From an uncultured virus (IMG/VR IMGVR_UViG_3300005512_000019) (Duplodnaviria; Heunggongvirae; Uroviricota; Caudoviricetes): a stretch of 64,000 nucleotides of DNA. The notes beneath the pieces are model-generated. The model worked only from the letters and a program-made list of their open reading frames with translations, was not told the origin of the DNA and did not search any database. The number at the start of each line of letters is the position of its first letter. The stretch's first letter is position 1. The stretch is taken from the IMG/VR virus record IMGVR_UViG_3300005512_000019. One strand, 5' to 3'. Positions 4,684-61,049 of the stretch are shown piece by piece. Position numbers and translations under genes: made by a program.

Positions 4684-7600
4684 ATGCCGAAAGTAGCCCA
4701 ATCTTGCAGCTGCCTAACGGCCCACGAGGATGCCGCAGGAGCCCTCGGACACACCGAGAGCCAGGGGAAGGCCCCCCGAGTGGCAGGACTGTCCACGCTG
4801 CGTGCCCTCCGGGCCGATCCGACAAGGACAAAGACCCTACGGGACGCCTTTGAGGCCGAGATGGTCCGGCGTTTCAGGAAGATCAAGAAGCTCATATGGG
4901 AATCAGTGTATGTCAACGACTGTTTTGGCCTCAAGGAGAAGAAGCCCGGAGACGGCCTCCAGCTCCAAGTGGCCGCTCCTCCGGGGGCCTTTGCATATGG
5001 GACCTCCTCCGACAAGGTCAACGGCTTCATGGGGTGGCTTGGGGAACAGACAGACAAGTACATCCTCAGCGATATGGAGACCGGGGGCAAGGTGAACAAG
5101 GGGATGCGCGTGATCCGGGGAGCCCCCAAGGCGGTAGCTGGACAGGCCGCTTGGACAGACCTCTACATTGCCAGCGGCTACAAGAAGGGCCTCCAGCGGG
5201 CCTACGGGGAGATGGAGAAGGCGGGATACATGGTGGTCAAGCCCCGGAGCGTGGAGGCTATCTTCAACACCCCCATGCACGCGGATCGGGTTGGAGCCAT
5301 CTACACCCGGACCTACAATGAGCTCAAGGGGATCACTGACGCAATGGATCAGCAGATCAGCCGGAGCCTAGCCGAGAGCATAGCCGAGGGCCGTCACCCG
5401 ATGCAGATGGCCCGCATCATGATGAACAGGGTGGAGAAGGTTGGGGACCTGGCCACCACAGACTCCCTCGGCCGCTTCATCCCGGCCCTCCGGCGGGCTC
5501 GGATGCTGGCCCGCACAGAGACTATCCGAGCCCACCACGTGGCTACCATCAACACCTACGAGGCAGCGGGAGTTGAAGGGGTGATCGTGCAGGCGGAGTG
5601 GAGCACGGCCGGGGATGACCGTGTCTGCCCGGATTGTGAGAGCCTTGAGGCCAAGGAGTTCACGTTGAAGGAGATACGGGGCATGATTCCCCGGCACCCC
5701 CTTTGCAGGTGTTGCGCTCTCCCGGTCAACGTCAAGATTGACAAGAAGAAGGTCAAGGACCTCTATGGGGAGGACAAGCTCACGGGCTTCCTCCCCCCGC
5801 TACCCAAGGGAGCGGACCTGAATGGCAAGGTGGTAGCCGAGATGGAGGCTCAGGGATGGTTCCACCCGGATGATCTCCCCTCCGGCGGCTGGCAGACCCT
5901 CGGGGACGGCTCTGAGATCAACTGGGCAACGGCCTACATGGACCCTCATAGCTTTGCGCAGGACTGGGCCCAGATGACAGGCAAGCCCCTTCCGGCTTCC
6001 TATCTGAAGGTGATCCAGCAGATAGCCAACGGGAAACACAAGTTCACCAGCACCCCCGAGTTCATGGCTGTCCTCAAGCCCAAGCTCAAGCAGGCCTACC
6101 ACGCCAAGAGCCTCCACGTCAAGAAGGCCATCCTCAAGAAGGCCTCTGCCAAGCGGATCGTTGTGGCCAAGAAGGTCCGTGCCGAGGTGGTGGAGCGCAA
6201 GGTGGCGGGCCTACCCCCGGCCCCTCCCAAGGCGGCGCACGTGACGGTGGCGGACATCCCCAATGACTCAGACGGGGCGGTGGTCTTTGGGAAGAGGCTC
6301 ACGGCTACCGCTGAGAGCCCCTCGGTCACCCCCGGCGGGAGCTCAGGCAGTACTGGGGCCAAGGTGTTCCTGGATGATGAGGGGGCTCGGTGGATCGTGA
6401 AGGACTACGGGGGCAACACCCTCCAGGTGGAATCCGAGTGGGTGGCCAACCGTCTGTACGCCCTCAACAACATCAATGTGCCGGAGGCCCGCCTGGCAAT
6501 CCTGCCGGACGGCCGGAAGGTGGTGTGCCTCCGCAAGCTGACGGAGAAGGGGCTTGTCCAGATGGGGGAGGCCAACGTTGATTGGGCCGCTTCCTCGGCT
6601 ATCGCCCGCCGGGGGTTCTCCACGGACTGCCTGGTTGGCAACTGGGATGTAGCGGGGACGGGGTGGGACAACATCCTGTGCGTCCCCACAGACAAGAGGC
6701 TCATCTGGCGCATTGACCAGGGTGGGTGCCTCTTCTTCCGAGCTCAGGGCGGGATGAAGGGGGCGGACTTTGGAAGGGCAGTCATGGAGCTGAAGTCCCT
6801 CCGAGAGGCGGGCTTCAACGGGATTGACAACCACTACGCAGTGCGGTTCTTTGCCCGGCTCACCGACAAGGAGATTGTGGCCCAGATCAATACGATGACC
6901 AACAACATCACCAATACCCGGATTGCCTCCCTGGTCCGGGCCTCCGGTATGGCCAGGGACAAGGCCGATGAGTTGATCACCATCCTACAGGAGCGGTTGT
7001 CCTACCTGCGCCAGTGGGGACGGGATACGGGGAAGGCCCTCAAGAGCGGAGCCCTGGGGGCTACCCGCGCAAGCCTGACCGCCTCAGACGCCCCGATCAG
7101 CCCCAAGGAGTGGGATACAATCGTTGCGGCCCGAGGCAATGGGGTAGCCTACCGCTGGGACGCTGGGCAGATTGAGGATCAGCAGGTGCACTTCTGGATT
7201 GAGACCCGAGCGGACGGCAAGAGGGTCCTCAAGGCCTGGTTCAAGGTCCGGGGCTCCGGGGTGGATGCTGTTGCCAAGCTGCACAAGGGCGGGGCCATGG
7301 TCAAGGGCACTACTATCGGCCTCCCGCCGGATCGGCTGACCTCCGTGACGGACAAGTGTACCACTGCCATCAAGGGGATAGCCTCCCGAGCGGCCAAGGG
7401 GGAGGGTCTGATGGACTATGACCTCACCCGAGTGGCTGAGGCTGAGGCTGAGTTCAAGGCCGTCCTCTCCGAGCTGAGGTCATTGGTCAAGCAGGGCTAC
7501 TACAAGCAGGGGGCGGTGACCCAGTTTGAGAGTCACTATGAGCCGTGGATCAGGTCTCTCAAGGACTCCATTAAGGGCAAGAAGGCGGGCCAGGTATTCA

Positions 7601-8814
7601 CTTGGGCTCCCCCTCAGCCGGGGCACCTCGGGAAGGCCCAGCTGCCGGCGGCGGTCAATCCCAAGGCGGCTCCCTCCTCCGCCCCGGCCCCCACTACGAT
7701 CCGGCTGGACGGGCAGCGGGAGGACTTCCACCTGTCCAACATTGATAGGGGCCACGTCTCCCGTACCACCCAGCTGTCCTACGCAGACGGGGACCTGGTG
7801 GGCTATGACGCGCACACGGGGCGGGTGGACAACGTGACAGTCAGGTCCTTTATCCAGGACCCCAAAAAGGGACAGACCGTGGCCAACCTCGTGAGCCTGG
7901 AGATTGAGGATGTCAGTCAGGTTGGAGCTCAGAAGCTCATCGACACCATTGGGAGGATCGGGGTTGTCAACCGGAGGCCCACGGCCCTGGAGGCGGAGGA
8001 CCTCTACTTGCGCCACCTCCTGTACGGGGTCCGGGACGCTGGCGGGAGCAGGGCTAGCTGGTGGGCAGGAGTCAAGGCCGAGCTTGACGGGATAGATGAT
8101 GTGGCTGTGAGGGTTGCGCGTGCTAGGGAGCTTCTCGTGGCGGAGATGCCGGGGGTGCAGACAGTGGATGACCTGCTCAGGCTCCCCGGCTACAACGTGG
8201 AGGGTGAGTGGGGGGCCTTCAACCATGGCTCCATCCGGTGGACCCGCCCGGACCTCCACGGCAAGGCTTGGGAGACGTTCTGCAAGGACTACGTTGTTCA
8301 CCACAACCTTCACGGAGGGGTGGAGACCGATCTGGAACGCATCCTCAACTCCGGCGGGGTCCTGGTCTCCAATAGCAACAAGATGCGCATGGGCATCCCT
8401 CCCGGTGGCATGAGCCCCTCCCACGACATCTGGAGCGGCGGCGGGGACTATGCATACACCCGCATATACCGATCCACCGACAACAGCACAGGCCTCTTCT
8501 GGAACGCCCGAGTGCTGGCCCGCACAGACGCCATGAGCTGGACCGGGGACACGCTGTACACCTCCGGCCGTTTGCTGGAGGAGTCCTTTGTCATGGAGTA
8601 CCGCCGGACGGGTATTGAGGGGTGGAAGGCCTGCGCTGCGAGAAGCTCAAACAACGAGACCCTGTTCAAGGGGGGCCTCTCCCTCCTGCAGGACCTGGAC
8701 AGGATTGTGGTGCCCAACAGCGGGCAGAAGGCCCGAGTCATAGACATGTTGAAGCGTCACGGGTACACCCAGCTGTCGGGAAAGCCCCTGGATGCTATCG
8801 TGGTGGTTCAGTAA
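4684..8814 (+). CDS. MuF/SPP1 gp7-like head morphogenesis protein fused to a PI3/4-kinase/HipA-like domain and an ART-like domain (polymorphic-toxin architecture)
   Basis: DPTRTKTL, RARMLARTET, WSTAGDDRVCPDC and IPRHPLCRC MuF motifs, then GSTGA/WIVK/ESE/GNWD..DN/RIDQGG kinase-like motifs, then HHNL...GGGDYAYTRI...NNETLFK. Confidence 0.85.
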   Translation: MPKVAQSCSCLTAHEDAAGALGHTESQGKAPRVAGLSTLRALRADPTRTKTLRDAFEAEMVRRFRKIKKLIWESVYVNDCFGLKEKKPGDGLQLQVAAPPGAFAYGTSSDKVNGFMGWLGEQTDKYILSDMETGGKVNKGMRVIRGAPKAVAGQAAWTDLYIASGYKKGLQRAYGEMEKAGYMVVKPRSVEAIFNTPMHADRVGAIYTRTYNELKGITDAMDQQISRSLAESIAEGRHPMQMARIMMNRVEKVGDLATTDSLGRFIPALRRARMLARTETIRAHHVATINTYEAAGVEGVIVQAEWSTAGDDRVCPDCESLEAKEFTLKEIRGMIPRHPLCRCCALPVNVKIDKKKVKDLYGEDKLTGFLPPLPKGADLNGKVVAEMEAQGWFHPDDLPSGGWQTLGDGSEINWATAYMDPHSFAQDWAQMTGKPLPASYLKVIQQIANGKHKFTSTPEFMAVLKPKLKQAYHAKSLHVKKAILKKASAKRIVVAKKVRAEVVERKVAGLPPAPPKAAHVTVADIPNDSDGAVVFGKRLTATAESPSVTPGGSSGSTGAKVFLDDEGARWIVKDYGGNTLQVESEWVANRLYALNNINVPEARLAILPDGRKVVCLRKLTEKGLVQMGEANVDWAASSAIARRGFSTDCLVGNWDVAGTGWDNILCVPTDKRLIWRIDQGGCLFFRAQGGMKGADFGRAVMELKSLREAGFNGIDNHYAVRFFARLTDKEIVAQINTMTNNITNTRIASLVRASGMARDKADELITILQERLSYLRQWGRDTGKALKSGALGATRASLTASDAPISPKEWDTIVAARGNGVAYRWDAGQIEDQQVHFWIETRADGKRVLKAWFKVRGSGVDAVAKLHKGGAMVKGTTIGLPPDRLTSVTDKCTTAIKGIASRAAKGEGLMDYDLTRVAEAEAEFKAVLSELRSLVKQGYYKQGAVTQFESHYEPWIRSLKDSIKGKKAGQVFTWAPPQPGHLGKAQLPAAVNPKAAPSSAPAPTTIRLDGQREDFHLSNIDRGHVSRTTQLSYADGDLVGYDAHTGRVDNVTVRSFIQDPKKGQTVANLVSLEIEDVSQVGAQKLIDTIGRIGVVNRRPTALEAEDLYLRHLLYGVRDAGGSRASWWAGVKAELDGIDDVAVRVARARELLVAEMPGVQTVDDLLRLPGYNVEGEWGAFNHGSIRWTRPDLHGKAWETFCKDYVVHHNLHGGVETDLERILNSGGVLVSNSNKMRMGIPPGGMSPSHDIWSGGGDYAYTRIYRSTDNSTGLFWNARVLARTDAMSWTGDTLYTSGRLLEESFVMEYRRTGIEGWKACAARSSNNETLFKGGLSLLQDLDRIVVPNSGQKARVIDMLKRHGYTQLSGKPLDAIVVVQ

Positions 8815-12606: not shown

Positions 12607-12963
12607 ATGATTCACAAGTTCAGACTGGATGAGGGGAATCACCGCCAGAGGGAAGATGGCCTGGTGGTCACCTACGTCCCCGGTGACGTGGTCCTCTCCG
12701 AGAGGCCCTTGGACCGCATCTTTCTCAACAAGTTCACCCGGATCGGGGTGGAAGAGGCCGAGGAGCCGGAGGAAGAGGCCGAGGAGCCGGAGGAAGAGGC
12801 CGAGGAGCCGGAGGAAGAGGCCGAGAGCGTGGCAGGGAGTGGCGCAGATGATGCGGAAGCCCCCGCCCCCACACGGAAGGCCAAGCCCCCCGTCAACGTG
12901 AAGAAGGTGGCCAAGAAAACGGCCCACCGCAACACCACCCGCCGGACCTCCCGGCCCAAGTAG
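12607..12963 (+). CDS. small capsid-adjacent protein with acidic repeats and basic tail
   Basis: AGGAGG SD; (EEAEEPE)n repeat followed by a Lys/Arg-rich C-terminus. Confidence 0.7.
   Translation: MIHKFRLDEGNHRQREDGLVVTYVPGDVVLSERPLDRIFLNKFTRIGVEEAEEPEEEAEEPEEEAEEPEEEAESVAGSGADDAEAPAPTRKAKPPVNVKKVAKKTAHRNTTRRTSRPK
12751..12825 (+). repeat. 21-bp tandem repeat GAAGAGGCCGAGGAGCCGGAG, ~3.6 copies
   Basis: Read directly from the sequence. Confidence 0.95.
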
Positions 12964-17602: not shown

Positions 17603-19561
17603 GTGATGGCAGGTGGTGACCTCGGTTCATTGAAGATAAAGCTGACCGCAGACGGGACTGAGCTCAAGAAGGGCTTTGACTCCGCTGAGGACCGCATGAC
17701 CCGTTTCGCCCGCTCCAGCAAGGCCCTTGGGGATGAGCTGGGGAAGATGGGCCGGAGAATGACCACCGCCGTCACCCTCCCTCTCGTAGGGATGGCCACC
17801 GCCGCAACGTTGCAATTCTCCTCCTTTGAGGCGGGGATGCGCAACGTCAATACAATAGCCAAGGAGACCGAGGGCCAACTGCGGAATACGTCCGCCCAGG
17901 TCCTGGAGATGTCCCGAGAGCTTGCCATGCAGCCCAAGGGCATGACTGAGGCCCTCTACAACATCAACTCCGCTTCCTTCAAGTCAGCGGAAGGTCTCCA
18001 GGTTCTCCGGGCGGCGGCGGTGGCCGGCAAGGCGGGCCTCTCCGACACGGCGGAAGCAGCCAAGGCAATCACGGCCATCCTCAACGCCTACAACAAGGAT
18101 GCCTCTGAGGCCGGGGACGTTTCGGACATCCTGTTCAAGACGGTTGAGCTTGGTGTCACCACTTTCGGGGAGCTGGCACAGCACCTCGGGGCTACCGTCG
18201 CAACTGCCGCCGCAGCCAAGGTTGAGTTTGATGAGGTAGCGGCCGGGATAGCCACCATGACCCGAGGTGGCATCAACTCCGCAGAGGCCTTCACCGCCAT
18301 GAATCGTTTTCTCATGGCGTTTATTGAGAACAAGGAGGAGCTTGCGGCCATGTTCAAGGAGTTTGGCTACGGCTCCGCCATGGCTGCGTTGGAGGCAAAG
18401 GGTCTGGGCGGGGCCGTCCAGATGATAGCCGAGAAAACGGGCGGATCAGCAGAGAAGGTCCGTGCCCTCGGCTTTGAGATGAGGGGCCTGAAGGCGGCTC
18501 TCTCCCTGGCCAGGAATGAGGGCAAGGACTTTGAGGGGGACCTCCGATCAATTGCCAACCAGTCCGCCCGATCCGGGGCCACGATGGACGCCTTCAAGGA
18601 GCAGAGCAAGTCCCTCTCCTTTGCAATGCAGGAGATGCGGGCTGCGATGAGCATAGCGTCCATCACCCTCGGGAAGGACTTGGCCCCCATGATCCGATCT
18701 CTCTCAGGCTGGGTCAGGGACCTCGCAGACAAGTGGACAAACCTGGACGCAGGGACCCGCAAGACCATCATCAGCGTGGGAGGCCTCCTGGCCGCTATCG
18801 GCCCACTCCTCCTCGGGCTAGCCGGAGTGGCCAAGGCCGTCTCGGCTATCTCCACTGCACTCATGTTCCTCAAAGCTCATGCGGTTGGGGCTTCCATCGG
18901 TTTTGGTATCCTGGGGGCGGCGGCTGCGGCCTTTGTAGCCGTCCAGCTCTGGAAGGAGCTCAGTGGGTACAATGAAGAGATGGCCCAACTGAAAGCCCAC
19001 ATCGCAAGCACCGCCTCAGAGGCCATGCAGAAGGAGGCCAATCTGCGTAGCAACCATGAATCCGAGCTGAGGCACCTCCTCAGTGGCGGAGAGATGGACC
19101 CCGAGTTGCCCACGGGGGAAGGGCACATGAATCGGGAGCAGCGCATTGGTTACCTCAAGAAGAACCTTGGATTTGATACCTCCCGCCGGATCGGCCGGGA
19201 GGTCCGGGCTATGCAGCAGCAGGAGGCTCCTGAAGAGGCAGTCAAGACTTGGGTGGACCGAGTCAACGATGAGCTTGCCCAGGTACTGGCCGAGAAGGAG
19301 GCCAAGTGGGATGCAGAAGCAGCCAAGGCGCAGGACCTAGCCCAGGTCACGGATCGGCCCGCCAATCCGGGGGCACTAGAGCATGGCTCCGCTGCCGCAT
19401 ATAGCGCAATCCTGGCCCACCGTGGAGGTAGTGACAGGGTCAGGGAGGAAATGGCAAAGAAGACAGAGCAAAACACCCGCCGGACGGCCGAGGGGATCAT
19501 GGAGCTTGTGGCTGAGTTGACAGGTGGAGCATCAGTGAGGGAGGTTCTGACAGTAGTATGA
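17603..19561 (+). CDS. tape measure protein (TP901 family)
   Basis: LKIKLTADG N-terminus, FEAGMRNV, LFKTVELGVTTFGEL, hydrophobic segment (AIGPLLLGL). Confidence 0.92.
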   Translation: MMAGGDLGSLKIKLTADGTELKKGFDSAEDRMTRFARSSKALGDELGKMGRRMTTAVTLPLVGMATAATLQFSSFEAGMRNVNTIAKETEGQLRNTSAQVLEMSRELAMQPKGMTEALYNINSASFKSAEGLQVLRAAAVAGKAGLSDTAEAAKAITAILNAYNKDASEAGDVSDILFKTVELGVTTFGELAQHLGATVATAAAAKVEFDEVAAGIATMTRGGINSAEAFTAMNRFLMAFIENKEELAAMFKEFGYGSAMAALEAKGLGGAVQMIAEKTGGSAEKVRALGFEMRGLKAALSLARNEGKDFEGDLRSIANQSARSGATMDAFKEQSKSLSFAMQEMRAAMSIASITLGKDLAPMIRSLSGWVRDLADKWTNLDAGTRKTIISVGGLLAAIGPLLLGLAGVAKAVSAISTALMFLKAHAVGASIGFGILGAAAAAFVAVQLWKELSGYNEEMAQLKAHIASTASEAMQKEANLRSNHESELRHLLSGGEMDPELPTGEGHMNREQRIGYLKKNLGFDTSRRIGREVRAMQQQEAPEEAVKTWVDRVNDELAQVLAEKEAKWDAEAAKAQDLAQVTDRPANPGALEHGSAAAYSAILAHRGGSDRVREEMAKKTEQNTRRTAEGIMELVAELTGGASVREVLTVV

Positions 19562-42615: not shown

Positions 42616-42958
42616 GTCTGATCACCCTCCTGATTTTGCGCAGGGCGTCCGGCCTCTTCCGGCGGATCACCCTGCGCGGTTTCACTACTGTTGGGACGGG
42701 CTCCGGCTCGGGCTTCCTTTCAAGCCACCTCTTCACCGATCTCCTGTCCACTCCCCTGTGGCGGTAGGCGAGCTCACGACAAGCCAAGTCATACTCCCGC
42801 CTGAACACCACTTTGCCGGGGCGGCTAGCCGGGATGCTCTCCCACCAGCTCACCCACCACTTCAACCTCTCATCGGGGAGGTCCTTCAGGCAGACCTCCT
42901 TCTCACCCATCCGGCCTAGCCCCGAGCTATGCCGCCAACTTGATCTCCTTCTTTTCAT
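42602..42958 (-). CDS. basic hypothetical protein
   Basis: Fills the gap between Pol and clamp loader; start uncertain. Confidence 0.5.
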   Translation of the reverse strand: MKRRRSSWRHSSGLGRMGEKEVCLKDLPDERLKWWVSWWESIPASRPGKVVFRREYDLACRELAYRHRGVDRRSVKRWLERKPEPEPVPTVVKPRRVIRRKRPDALRKIRRVIRHVVS

Positions 42959-44354
42959 GCCAACTCCGATCCACAGGGGCCAGGTCCGCTTCTACCTCCA
43001 TTGGGACAATGATCCACGGCCACTTCTCCCTCAGCTCCGGCCCCATGGTCCGCACGGCCGCTTCAAGCACGTCATCCAGCTCGGCCGGAACCACATCCAG
43101 TACAAGTGAATCGTGAATCTGACCGATGATCACGGTGTCCAGCTTATTATACAGCAGCCAGTCGTTTAGATCAATTGCGCTCTGAAGCAGGCAGTGGAAG
43201 GCGGCACCCTGAACTGGGTAGTTGATACAGTCATTTCGGCCCATCACGGAGGAGCACCGAAAGCCTGTCTTCATGTCGATGTATCCCCGCTTCAAGTAGC
43301 CGTCCCACCAGTCCTCCTTCCACCTGGCATAGACGGGAAAACGCTCACCCCAAAACTTCTTTTCCACCATGCGTATATGCCACGAGAAAGGCTCAGGCCC
43401 GTCCAGGTGGACCGTCCCCCATTCCCACGAGGTCCGGTCACCCCTCGGCCGGGGTATCTGTACCCGGACCCGCTGCCTGGCTAGGTGGTCCCGCATATTC
43501 TCCCCGTCCCTGATCTCCAGCTTGGCCGAGCTGGTCCAGAGGCTCTGAGCTACGTTGGCCCAATAGCTTCCATAAAACTCGGGGAACACAAAGTCATTCT
43601 TGCCACTGAACCGGATGTGCTTGTCCACCAACTCCGGGGGGAGCACGTAGCAGTCCCCGGCCGAGTCACGGTGCATGTCTTTGGAGGGGTCCAGGATGTA
43701 CCGGATCATGCCTGGGTCCTTGTGGTAGCACGCCGCCACCCGGACCTCCGCTCCCGAGTAGTCCAGCTCCAGTATCTGCCGGCCGGGGCGGGGGATGATC
43801 GCACTGCGAATGATGCGGCCAATCTCCGGGTTGCGGATGGGCATGTTCTGGAAGTTGGGGTTGGAGCAGGAGGAGCGGAAGGTGGGGACTGTATGCAGCT
43901 TGAATAGCGGGTGCAGGTAGCCGTCCACCGCCTCCCGTAGGATGCTGGACAGGTAGGTGTCACGGGCCTTCCCGAGCCTGCGCCACCGAATGAGGCGGGG
44001 TATCCACTCCACGTCCAGCTGCATCAGGGAGTCAGCGTCCACCGCCCTCTTCTGAGCCAGCCCCGTTTTCCGGGCGGGGTCCAGGCCCATCCGATCATAC
44101 AGCAGCTCAGCAACCTGATCGTTGGTCCCCAGGTCCAGCTTCCGGCCCTTCACCCGCCTCCATTCCTTCATCTCGGGGAGGGCGTGGAGCTCATCCTCAA
44201 GGTCCTCAATCTCCCCGGTCAACTCGGTGAAAGCCCTCTCGCAGTATTCAGTGTCCACCCGGACCCCGTTGGAGCTGATGTCTGACAGGGCTATAGCTCC
44301 CCGGTGCAGCAGCTCATAGGCCGTCTCCTGTGTAGGTTTTACCACCATGTCCAA
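42927..44354 (-). CDS. family A DNA polymerase, polymerase subunit
   Basis: RSSCSNPNFQN, motif A LDYSGAEVR, RFSGKNDFVFPEFYG, NYPVQG, motif C IHDS. Confidence 0.95.
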   Translation of the reverse strand: MDMVVKPTQETAYELLHRGAIALSDISSNGVRVDTEYCERAFTELTGEIEDLEDELHALPEMKEWRRVKGRKLDLGTNDQVAELLYDRMGLDPARKTGLAQKRAVDADSLMQLDVEWIPRLIRWRRLGKARDTYLSSILREAVDGYLHPLFKLHTVPTFRSSCSNPNFQNMPIRNPEIGRIIRSAIIPRPGRQILELDYSGAEVRVAACYHKDPGMIRYILDPSKDMHRDSAGDCYVLPPELVDKHIRFSGKNDFVFPEFYGSYWANVAQSLWTSSAKLEIRDGENMRDHLARQRVRVQIPRPRGDRTSWEWGTVHLDGPEPFSWHIRMVEKKFWGERFPVYARWKEDWWDGYLKRGYIDMKTGFRCSSVMGRNDCINYPVQGAAFHCLLQSAIDLNDWLLYNKLDTVIIGQIHDSLVLDVVPAELDDVLEAAVRTMGPELREKWPWIIVPMEVEADLAPVDRSWHEKKEIKLAA

Positions 44355-45577
44355 ATACTCCCCCGGCCGAGCAGCTCCATTTGGAGGTTGCCCAGCCAGT
44401 GTTCCACTAGTGAATCAATTGCGCAGTACCGCAGGAGGCTCCTGATGTCCACCTCGTGAATACGGTTGAAGGCGTTTGCGTTGGAATCATCCTTGCTTCT
44501 GAGAAACGGGGAGATGTGGGAGGAGTAGTCCATGACCCCAAAATGGAAGAGGGCCTGAGACTTCACCCCATTCACCCCGGAGCCCCGGCGGTTGTCATGA
44601 ACGTGCGCGGCCAGGACCGTGTCCCACGTCCAGCCGTCCACAATAGCGTCCAGGAGGACTCGGCTCCACACGTCCTCAAAGCCCAGGTTGGCGGCTATCT
44701 TGGGGATGGGGCTTTCCAGGAAGGCCTTGAGATGGGGGCGGACCTTCTCCGTGACAGGGAAGGCTCCCGAGCGGAAAGGGCTGTCAGCGATTGACGCGCA
44801 CACAATCCGATGGCCCACTGCATGCGGCTTGATCCCAGTGGTCTCGTAGTCCACGGCGGCTACCGGGGGCGGATCGTTGATCACCTCCTGAATGAAGTCA
44901 ATGGCCTCATCCTCATCCTGGGTAGTCCAGATGCAGTCGTCAAAGGAGGGGTGCCGCCGGATCGGGACGTTGAGCAGGTCCACCGCCTGCCGGAGGTCCT
45001 GATTGAATACCACCTCGGCTACCTCCGGGCAAGAGCCCCTGAGCAGGTAGGAGGGGTGGAAGGTAGGACATACCCAACAGTTGTTCTCCTGATCAGGGAT
45101 AGTCCGCCCCCTCCACCGTCCCACGCTCATCTCCCCGTCAGCTCGGTCTCCAAAGTAGGAGCGCACGGCCGTCCCCCCGAGGAGGACCACAACCTTGGGC
45201 GGATACTCCTTGAGCTCCTTGAACACCATTGGCCGGCATCCCTCCACCTCGGTGGGGGTAGGGGTGCGGTTGTTCGGAGGGCGGCAGGTGACAGCGTTAT
45301 GCTTGCGGGCGTCCCGGTCCAGGTCTATGCCCAGGGGCCGGAGGTGCTGGCGCAGATACTGGCCAGCCTTGCCGATTAACTGGGTGCCCCGGCGGTCCTC
45401 CTCCTCTCCGGGGGCCTCAGCCAGAAACAGCAAGCCCAACCGCCCCTCACCGGAGGGCGGCATGTTGGGCGACAAGCACTTGTCATTGAGCTTGCACCCG
45501 CCACACCGCTGGATAGTCCTCCGGCGGGGCTTGTGGTTGGCAATCAACTCCTCGTGAGTGAAGAATCCCTTGTTCAT
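44339..45577 (-). CDS. family-4 uracil-DNA glycosylase-like domain fused to a 3'-5' exonuclease (N-terminal subunit of split PolA)
   Basis: CxxC..C Fe-S, AEAPGEEED, CRPPNNRTP, FHPSYLLR; then VDYETTG, ANLGFE, YCAID. Confidence 0.92.
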   Translation of the reverse strand: MNKGFFTHEELIANHKPRRRTIQRCGGCKLNDKCLSPNMPPSGEGRLGLLFLAEAPGEEEDRRGTQLIGKAGQYLRQHLRPLGIDLDRDARKHNAVTCRPPNNRTPTPTEVEGCRPMVFKELKEYPPKVVVLLGGTAVRSYFGDRADGEMSVGRWRGRTIPDQENNCWVCPTFHPSYLLRGSCPEVAEVVFNQDLRQAVDLLNVPIRRHPSFDDCIWTTQDEDEAIDFIQEVINDPPPVAAVDYETTGIKPHAVGHRIVCASIADSPFRSGAFPVTEKVRPHLKAFLESPIPKIAANLGFEDVWSRVLLDAIVDGWTWDTVLAAHVHDNRRGSGVNGVKSQALFHFGVMDYSSHISPFLRSKDDSNANAFNRIHEVDIRSLLRYCAIDSLVEHWLGNLQMELLGRGSIWTWW

Positions 45578-53399: not shown

Positions 53400-54011
53400 C
53401 TACCAGGTGAGCTTGTCGCCGTCCCGCTGCACGATCTCGAAAGCCTCAAGCAGCGGCAGGGCAATCTTGGCGTAAAACCAGGACTCTTTCATGTTGTCCC
53501 GCCCGCCGTTCTTGACGTACAGCTCGTTGGCCTTCTCCACCAGGGCGTCCACGCTCTTGCGGCAGGTCTTGTAGGCTGCTGCCTCGCAGAAGGCGGTCAC
53601 ACGGGTGTAACCCTTGGTGCGCTGCGTGTCCTTGGTGGCCGGGGGAGCCTTGGTGGCCGCTGCCGCCTTGGCCGGGGGAGCCTTCTTGCCGGGGACCTTC
53701 TTGGCCGGGGGCTCGGCCTCTTCCTCCGGCTCCTCGGCCTCTTCCTCGGCCTCTTCCTCGGCCTCTTCCTCGGCCTCTTCCTCGGCCTCTTCCTCCGGCT
53801 CCTCATCCGCCGGGGCCACCAGCTCCAGGGCCTCCAGAACGTCCCAGGTGGAGTCCTTCAGCTCCTCGTCACCCTGGAGGTGCTCGTTGATTGCCTCGGT
53901 CATGGAGCCCACGATGTCCTCCTGGGACCCCGTGACCACGATCTCCACACCCAGGACTTCCGCCAGGTCCTTCGCAGCCGCCACCACTTTCGCTTTGCTC
54001 GGTTTCGCCAT
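53400..54011 (-). CDS. acidic-repeat protein with Lys/Ala/Pro linker and possible C-terminal winged helix
   Basis: Own promoter, AGGAGGT SD and terminator; (EEEA)n/EEPEEEA repeats. Confidence 0.75.
   Translation of the reverse strand: MAKPSKAKVVAAAKDLAEVLGVEIVVTGSQEDIVGSMTEAINEHLQGDEELKDSTWDVLEALELVAPADEEPEEEAEEEAEEEAEEEAEEEAEEPEEEAEPPAKKVPGKKAPPAKAAAATKAPPATKDTQRTKGYTRVTAFCEAAAYKTCRKSVDALVEKANELYVKNGGRDNMKESWFYAKIALPLLEAFEIVQRDGDKLTW
53712..53804 (-). repeat. 12/21-bp tandem repeats (GAGGAAGAGGCC; GAGGAGCCGGAGGAAGAGGCC)
   Basis: Read directly; same unit as 12751-12825 in inverted orientation. Confidence 0.95.
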
Positions 54012-57431: not shown

Positions 57432-57960
57432 GTCTTCCTCCTCCTCTTTTGAAACCTTCCACCATTGCCTCATCGCAGCTCCGGCCGATCCCGGCCATGG
57501 CTTTGATCCCGTACTCCCGCAGCTGATCCAGCCCAAACGTCTCCCGTTGGTGGTCCAGCTCCTCCTCTGAGAAGTCATGGTCATATCGGGACGGCGGCAG
57601 ATGCTTGATCGGCCGGGGCTCCCGCTCCTCCCCAGCGTCAAAGAGAGCGGCCCAGATGGCCATCAAGGCCCGATCCCGGTCAGGCTCTCCGTGGACGTGG
57701 TTCTTGAAGTTGTCATAGTCAATCTCCTGGGCCATAGCGGCCAGGAGGCGTGCCCAGAGGTCCTTGGGCATGATCACCCTGTACGGGTAGTCAGCTTCAG
57801 GCGTTGACCTCAGCCTGATGCTCTTATCCCCGGAGGCGTCCCGAGCCATCTTGGCCAGGGTCCCGATGTCCTCCTTGAAACGTCCCCGCACAAGGACGGT
57901 CTCCGGCCGATCCCGGTGCTGTACTGCGCTGAAGAATCCAAATTCAGTGAAGGCCCACAT
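57343..57960 (-). CDS. hypothetical phage protein
   Basis: MWAFTEFGFFSAV...VRGR...DYPYR...IDYDNFK pattern recalled from other phages. Confidence 0.65.
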   Translation of the reverse strand: MWAFTEFGFFSAVQHRDRPETVLVRGRFKEDIGTLAKMARDASGDKSIRLRSTPEADYPYRVIMPKDLWARLLAAMAQEIDYDNFKNHVHGEPDRDRALMAIWAALFDAGEEREPRPIKHLPPSRYDHDFSEEELDHQRETFGLDQLREYGIKAMAGIGRSCDEAMVEGFKRGGGRHGHSTPTPRRRHSRSPRGRSAGGASRVAQ

Positions 57961-57962
57961 GG

Positions 57963-58868
57963 TTAGTCTCCCAGCAGCTCTCTCATCACAACGTCCGCCT
58001 CTTCCTGGGTGAGCTGCGCGGGGTCTCCCCCTCCCAGGTCTGCGGTTTCAACCTCCATGTCAAAAGCAGTCAGGTACGTGGCCAGCTTCCGGGCCTGTAC
58101 GGGGGCGGTTGGGTCCTCCGCCCCGGAGTCATACATCACCGCTACTCGGGTGAAGTCTCGGAGCAGCTCCACCTGCTCCAGCTTGAACTGGACGCCAAAC
58201 GTTGCGACGGCCCCCGGCCCCAGTCTCCAAACGTCCGTGATGCCCTCAACCACCACTACCCGATCCCCCGGCACCTGGTCCAGCCCGTACAGGCAGTGCT
58301 TGTGGTCTCGGGCTTCCAGTCGTTGGGGGCAGGCCTTGTAGCGGAGGTTGGACTTGCCTGTCACATCCCTCCCCTGATAGCTGACCACCGTCCCCCGGAA
58401 GGTGATTGGGGCTATGATCCTGAACCTGTAGTCACCGAGGGGTCCCACTCCCTGCAGGCCCCACACCCTGGCTAGGTGGTCTGGGCTGAAGTCTCGGCTT
58501 TGGAGGTAGCGGCGGTGGATCGGTCCCAGGGCTCCGGCCGTCTCGGGGAGCCGGCAGACGCTGCGGCGGCGGACGTCAATCACGGGGTCCACCGCCAGGA
58601 GGCGGCGCACGTTGTACGCCTTCAGCTCCCGGAAGGCCTCCAGCTCATCGCAGCGGAGGAGAGCCTGGACTACTCGGGCGGCGGACTTCCCCCTGCACCT
58701 CCAACAGGTGAAGAAGTCCTTTGCCTCCGAGTAGCCCAGGTGGAATCCGGGGTCACCTGTACAGAAGGGACACTCCACGGCCACCCACCCCTTCCGGTGG
58801 TGCTTGTGGCCCGCTGGAGCGGTGGGGATGAAGTGATCCTCACAAAACCTTCTGAAGTCAAACGCCAT
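57963..58868 (-). CDS. DNA primase (Zn finger plus Toprim)
   Basis: CPFC...CWRC, YQGR, VVEGITD, MYD...GDP. Confidence 0.92.
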   Translation of the reverse strand: MAFDFRRFCEDHFIPTAPAGHKHHRKGWVAVECPFCTGDPGFHLGYSEAKDFFTCWRCRGKSAARVVQALLRCDELEAFRELKAYNVRRLLAVDPVIDVRRRSVCRLPETAGALGPIHRRYLQSRDFSPDHLARVWGLQGVGPLGDYRFRIIAPITFRGTVVSYQGRDVTGKSNLRYKACPQRLEARDHKHCLYGLDQVPGDRVVVVEGITDVWRLGPGAVATFGVQFKLEQVELLRDFTRVAVMYDSGAEDPTAPVQARKLATYLTAFDMEVETADLGGGDPAQLTQEEADVVMRELLGD

Positions 58869-59179
58869 TAGTCTCTCTCCTTCTCCAGAATCCTACGCAC
58901 CTGCTCAATTTCCTTCAAACAACCGGAGGTGTCCACCTTGAGATCAACCACCAGGCAGCGACAGTTGGGGTGCCTCGGGACGTTCTGGAAGTTGGGGGAG
59001 GAGGAGGCCGTGCGAGAGGTCCGAGCCCCGGTGATCTTGAACCTGATAGCCTTCTTGGCCCTCTCGGTGGCCTCCCGCACTATTCTCCTGATCCTCTCGG
59101 TCTTGGTCTCCGGCCGGAGGGGGAGCATGGCTGCTCCCACCCCCAGTGCGCTGACCCGGAAGAAGTCCCGCCTATTCAT
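58868..59179 (-). CDS. small protein with Tat-like leader and motif mosaic
   Basis: MNRRDFF..ALGVGAAMLP, then SSSPNFQNVPRHPNCRC. Confidence 0.6.
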   Translation of the reverse strand: MNRRDFFRVSALGVGAAMLPLRPETKTERIRRIVREATERAKKAIRFKITGARTSRTASSSPNFQNVPRHPNCRCLVVDLKVDTSGCLKEIEQVRRILEKERD

Positions 59180-60062
59180 TGCCGGCCTCTCTCAGCCTGA
59201 TGGCCGCACGCTTCAGGGCGTCCTTCTCCTTGGTCTCCCTCTCCACAACCTGATCCCAGGCATCCTGGTCCAGTACCTCCTTGATGGAGTCCTGAATCAG
59301 GGAGGAGAGGACCTTGGGCTCAAGGGCGTCCAGCTCCCAGGAGGTCCTCCCGTAGTTGGCAATGTACTCCGCACAGCGGGAGTCCGTGAGCTTGGCCGGA
59401 TTCGGCGGCGGGTTGTAGGCGTTCACCTGATCCATTGTCAGGGCTATCCGGCGGACTTCCACCTTGGCCCCAAACGTGTTCAGGCGGTCCTGGATGTCCC
59501 GTGACATGTCCACCCCGCTCGGGTCATGGTCCCCGAGGTGAATGAGGAGGCACTGGCGGTCCATCTCCTCGGCCCTCCACCTGAATCGGTTGGCCGCTTC
59601 ATACATGGAGGTTTGAGAGACGTACCCCCGGCAACTGAAGCAGGTCACGTCCAGCGGCTGTGCGGCCTGCTGAACAACCTGAATGAGGGCGTCCTTCTCC
59701 ACCCACACTTCCACGTACCAGGGCTGGGTCTCCCACTTGTTCCGGCGGTAGGAGTACACACAGGCATCCACTATCTGCTCGGGGCTGTTCCAGTGCTGGA
59801 GGCTCCGGGTGTGGCGGGTCCGATCCTGAATGGCATCCCAGTCCACCAGGCCGGCAAGGCGGGCTTTGGACAGTACCTCACCCAGCCTGTCGTAGTTGCT
59901 CTGCTTGTTGGGTAGGAAGCCCCGAGCCACAAACTGATAGTACAGCTGTCTCAGGGTCAGCTCGTAGCCCTGAGCCCGCAACTCCTCAATGATCTCATTG
60001 GCGGTGTTGATGGTCTCCAGGGTCTTGTCGGTAAAGTTGGTTGGTACAAAGCACTTCTTCAC
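59172..60062 (-). CDS. Topo VI-A/Spo11-like (JetD-like) Toprim protein
   Basis: TLRQLYY, EVWVEKDAL, RGY.S, GDHDPSG, ELDALEP. Confidence 0.82.
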   Translation of the reverse strand: MKKCFVPTNFTDKTLETINTANEIIEELRAQGYELTLRQLYYQFVARGFLPNKQSNYDRLGEVLSKARLAGLVDWDAIQDRTRHTRSLQHWNSPEQIVDACVYSYRRNKWETQPWYVEVWVEKDALIQVVQQAAQPLDVTCFSCRGYVSQTSMYEAANRFRWRAEEMDRQCLLIHLGDHDPSGVDMSRDIQDRLNTFGAKVEVRRIALTMDQVNAYNPPPNPAKLTDSRCAEYIANYGRTSWELDALEPKVLSSLIQDSIKEVLDQDAWDQVVERETKEKDALKRAAIRLREAGNE

Positions 60063-60355
60063 GCTACCACCTCCCGAGCGGCCAACTCTTCAATCATTTC
60101 TGAGGCCACCTTGCGAATGTAGTTTGCCAGGGTCTCTCCGGGGGAAGTTGACTGCTGCACTATCTCCAGGGGGGTATCCGCTCTGAAGTCATACTGCCGG
60201 CCCCCCGTGTCCACTGCGACGCAGCGGAAGCGGAAGGCATGGAGGCGTCCTCCCTGGTGATGGGTTGTCTCCATCTGATCCATCAGGGGGGAGTCCTCCC
60301 CCGGCCGCTCCATTAGGTTTTCAACTGTGATCTTCATGAGTTTGATCTTGGTCAT
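60059..60355 (-). CDS. hypothetical protein
   Basis: Operon fit. Confidence 0.5.
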   Translation of the reverse strand: MTKIKLMKITVENLMERPGEDSPLMDQMETTHHQGGRLHAFRFRCVAVDTGGRQYDFRADTPLEIVQQSTSPGETLANYIRKVASEMIEELAAREVVA

Positions 60356-60361
60356 TGCTGA

Positions 60362-60595
60362 TCAGTCCTCCTCTCCGGGCGGCGGGAGGATCGGGCACCA
60401 CTTGCGGATGCTCTTCCCAAAGCCCTTGACGTTGTGTGCGCGAAACTCCTGGAGGTCCTCTCTCCAGTAGGCCAGCTCCCTCCCCGTCTTGCTAGTCCAG
60501 ATCATGACGTGCTCCCCGTCTGCGGGCTGGCTTTGTGAGAGGTCCCTCCAGTAGATGTCCTCTTGATTGCGGTGAATGACGGCTTCTTTACTCAC
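60362..60595 (-). CDS. DUF551-like small protein
   Basis: W....P..GEHVMIW...W..I.PPP pattern. Confidence 0.5.
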   Translation of the reverse strand: MSKEAVIHRNQEDIYWRDLSQSQPADGEHVMIWTSKTGRELAYWREDLQEFRAHNVKGFGKSIRKWCPILPPPGEED

Positions 60596-61049
60596 TCTGT
60601 GCCCTCCTGACTACCCGTCGCACCTTCTTGGCAACGGGGCGTTTGATGACCTGGCGGCGGGGCTTGTCCCCTCCGCTCGTATCAAGTGTGTGAATGGTAC
60701 GGTTGGCCGGGGCCGGGGGAGGGCTAGCCGGATGGGGCGACTGGGGGACGGTCTGGCCCTTCTTCCGGGGGCGACCACTCATCACTCGGCTTCCGGCCCC
60801 CACCAGGTCCTTCTGGGTGAACACCCCGTGCCCCATGGTCTGAAAGCGGATGTGGAACAGCTTGAAGAGGTCGTTGCCCTCCCGGTCTGTTCCCCACGTG
60901 TGTATCACGGCCTGGGTCCCGCTCTTGGATTCGATTGTGAGCCCTTCCAGGTACTCAGGCAGGTGGTCCTCCGGGCCTTCCGCCTGCTCCACAATCGGGT
61001 CCGGGTCCGGGGCGGGCCTGTTTACCTTCCTGATGATGCACTTTTTCAT
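60588..61049 (-). CDS. hypothetical protein with basic termini
   Basis: AAGGAGG SD; own promoter. Confidence 0.6.
   Translation of the reverse strand: MKKCIIRKVNRPAPDPDPIVEQAEGPEDHLPEYLEGLTIESKSGTQAVIHTWGTDREGNDLFKLFHIRFQTMGHGVFTQKDLVGAGSRVMSGRPRKKGQTVPQSPHPASPPPAPANRTIHTLDTSGGDKPRRQVIKRPVAKKVRRVVRRAQSE

Follow-up and report, generated by a model that had tools for sequence, protein, structure and literature searches.

Introduction

Mycobacteriophage Island3 carries gp68, an orphan of 85 aa that was inserted into the genome and ends in a copy from a neighbouring gene, as set out in the passages of PMC3029335 that concern it. Here we describe ORF103 (P0001; 58868..59179, minus strand; 103 aa), found in DNA from an uncultured virus of the Caudoviricetes (IMG/VR IMGVR_UViG_3300005512_000019); we call the whole stretch analysed, 64,000 nucleotides, the window. 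According to those passages, gp68 is, like ORF103, a small ORF without homologues that is missing from the corresponding gene junction in a relative, and part of it copies another phage gene, which was attributed to recombination at short gene-boundary sequences. However, the copied part of gp68 as described there comes from the end of the gene right next to it and is still recognizable by nucleotide identity, whereas ORF103 resembles genes that are 15 kb and 53 kb away. The copies in ORF103 are also far more diverged than that of gp68, with 59% nucleotide identity to the phage's own PolA (DNA polymerase) gene and no codon-level link to MuF.

A moron, in the definition quoted in PMC3029335, is an ORF that brings its own promoter and terminator and is inserted between genes adjacent in relatives. 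ORF103 resembles a moron in that there is extra DNA (~316 nt) between genes that are contiguous in the relative G002. In contrast to a moron, it has no promoter-like site (in a sigma-70 consensus scan) and no terminator-like sites at the ends of the insert, and it is embedded in an operon by overlapping start and stop codons.

Parts of the ORF103 product recall known protein families. Family A DNA polymerases have catalytic motifs A, B and C (palm carboxylates, O-helix). Residues ~18-70 of ORF103 align with the stretch of this family (PF00476) before motif A (T-G-R-L-S-S..P-N-L-Q-N-I-P), with the PolA of its own clade, which has PNFQN, as the closest sequence, but they cover only ~50 of roughly 400 domain positions. 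With the Phage Mu F / SPP1 gp7-type domain (PF04233), ORF103 shares the I/V-P-x-H-P-x-C-R-C end and the few residues that follow, although only 18 residues match and the remainder of the domain, with the upstream Cys pair of the phage's own MuF, is absent. Like Tat signal peptides (PF10518), ORF103 has RR-D-F-F at residues 3-7, then a hydrophobic stretch and a basic region; unlike them, it scores below cutoff, lacks AxA, and has a hydrophobic stretch that continues into the PolA-like segment. A sequence-only reading had proposed that ORF103 is an immune decoy or sponge, or else a product of micro-recombination. We think it somewhat more probable than its alternatives combined (roughly 0.55) that ORF103 is a lineage-specific chimeric orphan, assembled from pieces of the PolA and MuF of its own clade and maintained as an open frame in an operon with translational coupling, and is not a decoy.

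Results

ORF103 and its operon

The 103-aa ORF is present at 58868-59179 (minus strand), with a translation identical to the one first quoted for it, and no second frame on the coding strand stays open across this interval. Its GC content at codon positions 1, 2 and 3 is 0.52, 0.48 and 0.81, which resembles the adjacent genes and includes a coding-type GC3. To judge from these features, ORF103 is a real ORF. The window is 62% GC and contains 209 ORFs of at least 90 aa, versus 60 in a crude gene set.

The upstream neighbour encodes a topoisomerase-like protein (phrog_6247; 59172..60062, minus strand; PHROGs E 4.1e-108) and shares its final 8 nt with the start of ORF103 in a stop/ATG overlap. 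The downstream neighbour encodes a DNA primase (phrog_47; 57963..58868, minus strand; PHROGs E 4.4e-28), and its ATG overlaps the ORF103 stop codon as TAATG (58870-58866). A putative Shine-Dalgarno-like site, GAGAGAGG (59186..59193, minus strand), is located 6 nt 5' of the ORF103 ATG, within the 3' end of the topoisomerase-like gene, and AAGGAG (58877..58882, minus strand), a putative ribosome-binding site for the primase, falls within the final codons of ORF103; both were read from the sequence. The genes around ORF103 in the operon overlap or are a few bases apart. A simple sigma-70 consensus scan of 57500-60500 found no promoter-like sites. The same interval has two terminator-like sites, no excess over shuffled sequences (mean 1.8); neither is inside ORF103 or bounds the insert, and the sole same-strand one is ~1.2 kb off. 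The single Rfam match is to a miRNA family (E 0.42), far under the gathering score. Predicted structures of the product are of low confidence, both from AF2 (pLDDT 63.8, pTM 0.37) and in the ESM Atlas (pLDDT 0.56).

Extra DNA between the topoisomerase-like and primase genes

The closest syntenic relative is G002 (53% identity in the primase). In its locus L032, the end of the topoisomerase-like gene (620-1501) directly overlaps the start of the primase gene (1498-2397). In a blastn comparison, window positions 60002-59215 correspond to L032 680-1464 and window positions 58807-58731 to L032 1556-1632, and between these blocks there are 408 nt in the window and 92 nt in L032. Because the two genes overlap directly in G002, ORF103 corresponds to ~316 extra bases in the window, an unrooted indel that could be an insertion in the window or a deletion in G002. 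Four other relatives have unrelated small ORFs upstream of the primase, none of which matches ORF103.

ORF103 is an orphan without homologues in the collections searched. A near-length word search returned only the query, and phmmer against 1.84 billion representative proteins of all lengths returned only ORF103 itself. There were no matches by tblastn in 50,697 phage records, no homologue in the ESM Atlas, and no match to an exact 50-nt ORF103 pattern in viral_contigs. The sequence-only reading had made its decoy depend on homologues that retain the motifs and had suggested a search for short proteins carrying both of them. A degenerate PN(L/F)QN.P.HP.CRC junction had no occurrence in viral_contigs and genome_contigs, and no homologue of ORF103, with or without the motifs, came from any collection searched. 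A second metagenome contig, 99.98% identical over 8781 nt, has an identical ORF103.

A segment similar to PolA

The motif SCSNPNFQNMP, to which part of ORF103 had been likened, is found in the PolA ORF (42927-44354), and the likeness is more extensive than had been noted, reaching beyond the motif to aa ~18-70 of ORF103 (58970..59128, minus strand). The corresponding region of the phage's own PolA gene is 43827..43943 (minus strand; PolA aa 138-176), with 17/40 identities by BLASTP (E 9e-6). Pfam DNA_pol_A matches aa 27-69 (E 0.0033; 16.9 bits versus a 34.3-bit gathering cutoff) over profile positions 93-133 of 381. Below threshold, ORF103 also matches phrog_17 (PolA; E 2.7e-5) and NCBIfam PolA models (aa 18-70, E ~6e-4). 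Pol I makes up 24 of its 25 PDB matches, all aligned to the same region, and the sole match in PADLOC, to the PolA-like RTasPolA model (E 0.024), is a further reflection of the PolA fragment. All similarity scores of ORF103 are under the curated family cutoffs. The profile alignments stop at ~aa 70, ahead of motif A; ORF103 has none of the catalytic motifs A, B and C, and it falls outside PF00476.

Six-frame searches also found similarity to the PolA of G002 (aa 18-70, E 1.2e-5) and of G001 (E 6.8e-4). Among the PolA loci of five relatives, the motif was located in three, in each case as PNFQN, and PNFQN is common to the four clade PolA sequences compared when the phage's own is included. The I(L/V)RE and FK residues of ORF103 are common only to its own PolA and that of G002. 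ORF103 has lost several clade-invariant PolA residues around the PNFQN core, and thus the fragment is without the native PolA surface.

Mismatches between ORF103 and its own PolA number 17, 10 and 20 at the first, second and third codon positions over 38 codons, which is the pattern of prolonged divergence at the protein level, not of recent neutral decay. All five PNFQN codons are identical between the two genes, and selection on the ORF103 product could be why the core is intact within a segment of ~57% amino-acid divergence. The same codon is used at 12 of 15 shared residues (7.45 expected, P 0.011), a same-codon excess that contrasts with the long-divergence mismatch pattern in this segment.

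We also considered ORF103 as the relic of a PolA gene that was once beside the topoisomerase-like gene. The contexts examined do not support this: PolA is within ~1.2 kb in two of five (downstream in L001, upstream in RDJL Phi 1) and absent in L002, Delta and Pam3. Nor did six-frame searching of the window reveal further PolA pieces beside ORF103.

A segment similar to MuF

The MuF motif PRHPLCRC had been cited as a second source of likeness, and it does occur in the 1376-aa MuF protein (4684-8814). The similar segment of ORF103 (aa 67-84, VPRHPNCRCLVVDLKVDT; 58928..58981, minus strand) was delimited with a clade MuF HMM, PHROGs and BLASTP, and it resembles aa 334-353 of the phage's own MuF (IPRHPLCRCCALPVNVKID; 5683..5742, plus strand). 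The clade HMM gives ORF103 14.1 bits, over aa 67-84 only, and the best of 1000 shuffles reached 7.1 bits; phrog_4728 matches at E 0.046. BLASTP against the phage's own MuF (7/9) has E 0.002 as a single comparison and ~0.1 when multiplied by 60 proteins, so that after correction the sequence match to MuF would be marginal by itself.

The ORF103 version of the motif, PRHPNCRC, has an exact counterpart in the MuF of L027. Of the 20 clade MuF loci, all have HP.CRC, six have HPNCRC and four have PRHP. The HPNCRC motif of a PF04233-type C-terminus is present in ORF103; Pfam PF04233 itself has no match to ORF103 at E<=0.1, and the protein is not a member at the domain level. ORF103 and its own MuF agree in only 2 of 7 motif codons, and thus there is no visible DNA-level link between the two genes. 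The idea that ORF103 is a shortened whole MuF domain came from a gapped tblastn alignment of aa 8-82 with L025/L026 and was rejected, the clade HMM match being confined to aa 67-84.

Comparison with chance

The longest exact match of ORF103 in the rest of the window is the 16-nt identity that had been claimed between 58982..58997 and the PolA gene at 43845-43860, and it is indeed there, with both copies on the minus strand. There are, in addition, two unrelated 15-nt exact matches of ORF103 elsewhere in the window, and codon-shuffled versions of ORF103 had an exact window match of at least 13 nt in 243 of 300 cases. At the DNA level, the 16-nt identity is weaker evidence than it appears.

At the protein level, the likeness to PolA and MuF motifs exceeds chance. 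Smith-Waterman comparison of ORF103 with the window proteins gave 67 for PolA and 60 for MuF, with 42 as the next best among 59 others; the PolA of G002 scored 79. When the whole proteome was shuffled (n=200), a best score of 67 was never reached, a best score of 60 was reached once, and a second-best score of 60 was never reached. In six-frame searches of the whole records of five relatives, the best match was PolA in two and the MuF motif in three. The likeness of LVVDLKVDTSG to a tape-measure protein does not survive this comparison: the tape-measure protein (17603-19561) is outside the eight best Smith-Waterman matches; its score is therefore at most 35, which the null range includes.

The N-terminus

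A Tat-like leader had been proposed for the N-terminus of ORF103 (aa 1-20; 59120..59179, minus strand). MNRRDFF and a short hydrophobic stretch, of 13 residues, are present, and to this extent the proposal holds. The match to Pfam TAT_signal (PF10518) is below cutoff (E 0.006; 16.9 versus 22.7 bits), however, NCBIfam at E<=1 has no TAT model for ORF103, and the sequence has no AxA site after the hydrophobic stretch. The alignment with the G002 PolA starts at aa 14-18, already within the hydrophobic stretch. A 15-residue back-translated pattern (residues 3-17), used to look for a source of the N-terminus, had no matches in genome_contigs.

Discussion

The ~316 extra bases, the lack of homologues, and best matches to PolA and MuF of its own clade fit the origin of ORF103 as a by-product of recombination; the micro-recombination that the sequence-only reading offered as its other choice agrees with these data. 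We postulate that ORF103 fills the extra bases at the topoisomerase-like/primase junction of a siphovirus-type phage, and that aa ~18-70 are a strongly diverged, in-frame copy of ~50 codons of the clade PolA gene. The copied part would span the PNFQN loop and the point where the thumb subdomain meets the palm. It would then pass, via a shared V/I-P-R, into ~18 codons like the HP.CRC end of the clade MuF domain. Illegitimate recombination (by microhomology or template switching), at a junction that varies among relatives, is the most likely source.

ORF103 probably persists because it maintains the flow of ribosomes along an operon whose genes are coupled in translation. The upstream stop codon overlaps the ORF103 ATG, the ORF103 stop codon overlaps the primase ATG, and the last codons of ORF103 contain the putative primase ribosome-binding site, an arrangement that could provide such coupling. 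The product is probably small and poorly folded, with little or no activity of its own, and would be neither a polymerase, nor a MuF protein, nor a decoy.

Other explanations start from the same data. ORF103 could encode a functional accessory protein whose N-terminus is a Tat signal or anchors it in the membrane, such as a small envelope or superinfection-exclusion factor; the origin of the fragments would then be incidental. RRDFF and the 13-residue hydrophobic stretch, followed by a basic region and matched below cutoff by TAT_signal, would suit such a protein, as would an open frame with coding-type GC3 and a Shine-Dalgarno-like site upstream. Small genes in variable slots are, as general knowledge has it, often accessory, which is also the theme of bioRxiv 10.1101/2023.04.06.535777. 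This explanation is nonetheless unlikely, given a TAT score under cutoff, the lack of an NCBIfam TAT model and of an AxA cleavage motif, a PolA-like alignment that begins inside the hydrophobic stretch, a position in the middle of a replication operon, and no homologues by phmmer. It is, in our estimate, quite unlikely that ORF103 is an ordinary orphan gene whose likeness to PolA and MuF is a coincidence picked from a 64-kb scan. Every profile match is under its curated cutoff, the 16-nt identity exceeds two unrelated matches by a single nucleotide where most shuffles reach 13 nt, a best score as high as that of MuF did arise in one shuffle, and the E value for MuF is modest once all 60 proteins are counted. 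Nevertheless, Pfam, PHROGs, NCBIfam, PADLOC and the PDB independently report PolA, as does BLASTP with the phage's own PolA, and chance is already unlikely for that part. For the two parts together, PolA or MuF is the best six-frame match in all five relatives, no shuffled proteome gave a second-best score of at least 60, and the MuF HMM score was well above the best of 1000 shuffles. Alternatively, the 312 nt could be untranslated, non-coding filler, with an open frame and GC3 periodicity inherited from the source pieces. A stop-free frame of 103 codons is unexceptional at this GC content, there are no homologues, and the fold prediction is weak. We consider this decidedly unlikely, since ORF103 meshes exactly with both neighbours at its start and stop codons, the Shine-Dalgarno-like site is properly placed before the ATG, no other frame is open on the coding strand, and an untranslated 0.3-kb gap would be unusual among overlapping or nearly abutting operon genes.

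Finally, ORF103 could have been selected to display PNFQN and HP.CRC, either as a decoy for host sensors of phage PolA or MuF or as a dominant-negative product against the polymerase or head protein of a co-infecting relative. The cores that are retained are the most conserved positions of their source families (PNFQN in 4/4 PolA, HP.CRC in 20/20 MuF), the flanks have diverged, and the PNFQN codons are those of PolA. However, retention of the cores is partly an ascertainment effect, because detection of similarity needs a conserved core. PolA residues near the core that are invariant in the clade are lost, few of the MuF-motif codons are common with the phage's own MuF, and a decoy finds no conservation of ORF103 in the collections searched, no defence model other than the PolA-like one, and no confident fold. 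A working Tat-like leader would take the product out of the cytoplasm, where such sensors act, which also argues against a decoy. Where the anti-defence reports considered bear on this question, their examples are DNA mimics, nucleotide sponges and host-side decoys rather than phage proteins that display motifs of their own. Selection for motif display thus appears very improbable, and we give no more credence to a variant in which the phage's UvsX-like recombinase uses ORF103 as a partial donor cassette to convert the PolA motif region. Only if the product were selected for motif display would it represent a new type of counter-defence.

If, as we favour, ORF103 is a chimeric orphan made from pieces of PolA and MuF, it would be a clean and well-delimited case of the formation of a new small phage ORF, in which short in-frame pieces of the phage's own essential genes are joined at a junction and kept open by translational coupling. 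It would illustrate how an orphan gene can originate, through an unsurprising and ordinary kind of phage mosaicism. It would also call for caution with tiny phage ORFs, in which motif-level profile matches to polymerase or MuF can mean fragment ancestry rather than function.

Genome setting and position of ORF103

ORF103 (58868-59179, minus strand) is the reading frame for the 103-aa protein quoted in the sequence-only reading. It lies inside the replication module of a tailed-phage genome of 61.8% GC. The structural module (~1.4-27 kb, plus strand) encodes terminase, portal, the 1376-aa MuF head-morphogenesis protein, head proteins and the tape-measure protein. The replication module (~32-64 kb, minus strand) encodes an exonuclease, a UvsX-like recombinase, SSB, a clamp loader, the family A polymerase PolA (two ORFs), a clamp, a DnaB-like helicase, a helicase loader, primase, a topoisomerase-like protein and an SNF2 helicase.

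ORF103 is the sole open frame on its strand there, with a GC3 (0.81) similar to that of adjoining genes. Its first 8 nt (ATG at 59179) overlap the last 8 nt of the topoisomerase-like gene, and GAGAGAGG lies 6 nt ahead of the ATG. Its TAA and the primase ATG have one A in common (TAATG), and the AAGGAG site of primase lies within its last codons. We infer that ORF103 is translated as part of the operon. A scan of 57500-60500 gave no promoter-like site; its two terminator-like matches were not above shuffles, and neither bounds ORF103. An Rfam search returned no matching family.

The junction upstream of primase

The comparison with relatives is decisive. Five IMG/VR records were reached through MuF-domain relatives, and all five have a primase homologue. 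One of them, G002, has a primase 53% identical to that in the window and the same gene order: SNF2, a small ORF, the topoisomerase-like gene and primase. In G002, the topoisomerase-like gene (620-1501 of locus L032) directly overlaps primase (1498-2397). By blastn, window 60002-59215 aligns with L032 680-1464 (69.6%) and window 58807-58731 with L032 1556-1632. Between these blocks there are 408 nt in the window versus 92 nt in G002, and the 316-nt difference is ORF103. The comparison is unrooted, and the difference could be either an insertion in the window lineage or a deletion in G002. Both phages have the same kind of stop/start overlap at the beginning of primase (TAATG, window 58866-58870; TGATG, L032 1498-1504), despite the different preceding gene.

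In the other relatives, the ORF just upstream of primase is 110 aa (contigs L007/L004), 85 aa (G001), 114 aa (G003) or 212 aa (G005, with three further small ORFs before it), and none of these matches ORF103. Because these ORFs are unrelated, the topoisomerase-like/primase junction is a variable slot, with ORF103 as one lineage-specific occupant. At another relative's locus (L002, 2552-4666), the topoisomerase-like homologue is 704 aa versus the usual ~296; its insert of ~400 aa starts with Cys, ends with His-Asn then Cys before the conserved W(I/V)EKDAL, and looks like an intein.

ORF103 retrieved only itself in a near-length search and in a phmmer search of 1.84 billion representatives of all lengths. 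There was no match by tblastn of phage records and no homologue in the ESM Atlas. A pattern for the junction of the two motifs matched nothing in viral_contigs or genome_contigs. Over 8781 nt, the window and a second metagenome contig (L003) are 99.98% identical, with both differences outside ORF103. These sole differences, at 60814 and 60827, are 13 nt apart within a 153-aa ORF (60588-61049).

Resemblance to PolA and MuF

The motifs from which ORF103 had been called a mosaic are present where they were reported: SCSNPNFQNMP in PolA (42927-44354, minus strand) and PRHPLCRC in MuF (4684-8814, plus strand). ORF103 and the PolA gene do share 16 identical nt. In a Smith-Waterman comparison with a crude set of 60 window proteins, ORF103 scored 67 with PolA, 60 with MuF and 42 with the next best. 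Among 200 shuffles, each scored against the whole window protein set, the best score was at least 67 in none and at least 60 in one, and the second-best was never at least 60. The proposed likeness to the tape-measure protein did not rise above this null. Only one of 18 small genes, a glutamate-rich-repeat gene, outscores ORF103 against other window proteins. Two unrelated genes have glutamate-rich stretches encoded by tandem repeats of 21 nt and 12 nt (12747-12825, plus strand; 53698-53814, minus strand); these repeats give the top protein self-similarity score among small genes.

As single comparisons, BLASTP gave 17/40 identities with the phage's own PolA (E 9e-6) and 7/9 with its own MuF (E 0.002). 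The PolA likeness is recovered independently by several libraries: Pfam DNA_pol_A (aa 27-69, E 0.0033), phrog_17 (E 2.7e-5), three NCBIfam Pol I models (aa 18-70, E 6e-4 to 0.011) and a fourth, NF011539 (E 0.086), and PADLOC RTasPolA (E 0.024), all scoring under curated cutoffs. In PDB, 24 of the 25 matches at E<=10 were Pol I, all on the T-G-R-L-S-S..P-N-L-Q-N-I-P region. A clade MuF HMM, built from 14 unique domains out of 20 related loci, gave ORF103 14.1 bits, aligning aa 67-84 only; the top of 1000 shuffles was 7.1 bits and the top other window protein 6.9 bits. PRHP occurs in 4/20 clade MuF loci and HPNCRC in 6/20, and the exact octamer PRHPNCRC is in the MuF of one relative's locus (L027). 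The resemblance is beyond chance at the protein level. The DNA-level case is weaker, because the 16-mer, although the longest exact match of ORF103, is accompanied by two unrelated 15-mers, and 243/300 codon-shuffled ORFs have an exact match of at least 13 nt.

PolA itself is encoded by two ORFs with a 16-nt overlap (42927-45577, minus strand): one of 412 aa (44339-45577) with a UDG-superfamily domain and the N-terminal part of phrog_17, and one of 475 aa (42927-44354) with the polymerase domain. The split looks conserved and not an assembly error, because the polymerase part is a separate open frame (457-487 aa) in 5/5 relatives. In MuF, the Phage_Mu_F match is limited to residues 223-344, and the C-terminal ~1000 residues have no Pfam match at E<=0.1.

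Source of the pieces and predicted product

When the whole records of the five relatives were searched in six frames, the top match of ORF103 was PolA in two (G002, E 1.2e-5, aa 18-70, 38% identity; G001, E 6.8e-4) and the MuF motif in three. Its score with G002 PolA (79) exceeds that with its own. PNFQN, as in this phage, is found in all 3 of the 5 relatives' PolA loci in which a regular expression located the motif region, and the I(L/V)RE and FK residues of ORF103 are common only to its own and G002 PolA. Because of these matches, both pieces look to have come from genes of this phage clade and not from unrelated sources. They join at V-P-R, which fits both consensus patterns, QN(I/V)P.R (PolA) and IPRHP (MuF), and is plausible as a microhomology junction.

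The same codon is used at 12/15 residues common to its own PolA (7.45 expected from window codon usage, P 0.011) and at 2/7 common to its own MuF (3.09 expected). Against PolA, the first, second and third codon positions have 17, 10 and 20 mismatches across 38 codons, and nucleotide identity of the segment is 59%. Such a mix is not what either a recent copy or clear selection over a long time would leave.

AF2 without an alignment gave a model (pLDDT 63.8, pTM 0.37) with residues 1-25 unstructured, helix 26-44, strand 46-55, a long loop holding both motifs, strand 75-83 and helix 85-101; the Atlas model is likewise weak. Several clade-invariant PolA residues near the motif are substituted in ORF103. 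As a part of a polymerase, the fragment cannot be functional. The N-terminus does resemble a Tat signal, as had been suggested, but falls under the Pfam cutoff and has no AxA site; residues 3-17 are not encoded exactly in any genome in a genome_contigs pattern search.

Origin of ORF103

The best-supported reading is that ORF103 is a chimeric orphan. Illegitimate recombination at the variable junction would have produced it, partly from pieces of PolA and MuF genes of the same clade joined in frame, and it would have been kept as an open, translationally coupled spacer before primase. In excerpts from PMC3029335, mycobacteriophage Island3 gp68 is an inserted 85-aa orphan whose end copies another gene; as described there, it is a close precedent. 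ORF103 as a classical moron was rejected, since no bounding promoter or terminator was detected in 57500-60500.

The sequence-only reading had offered an immune decoy or a product of micro-recombination. The variable junction and the clade PolA and MuF fragments favor the latter, whereas the decoy has no positive evidence. The types described in excerpts from papers on anti-defence are DNA mimics, nucleotide sponges and host-side decoys. That ORF103 has been kept by selection for motif display seems to us very improbable.

The observation is genuine, and for the PolA and MuF pieces it has statistical support. Ordinary phage mosaicism accounts for it, and it is of low interest unless ORF103 proves to be expressed and under selection.
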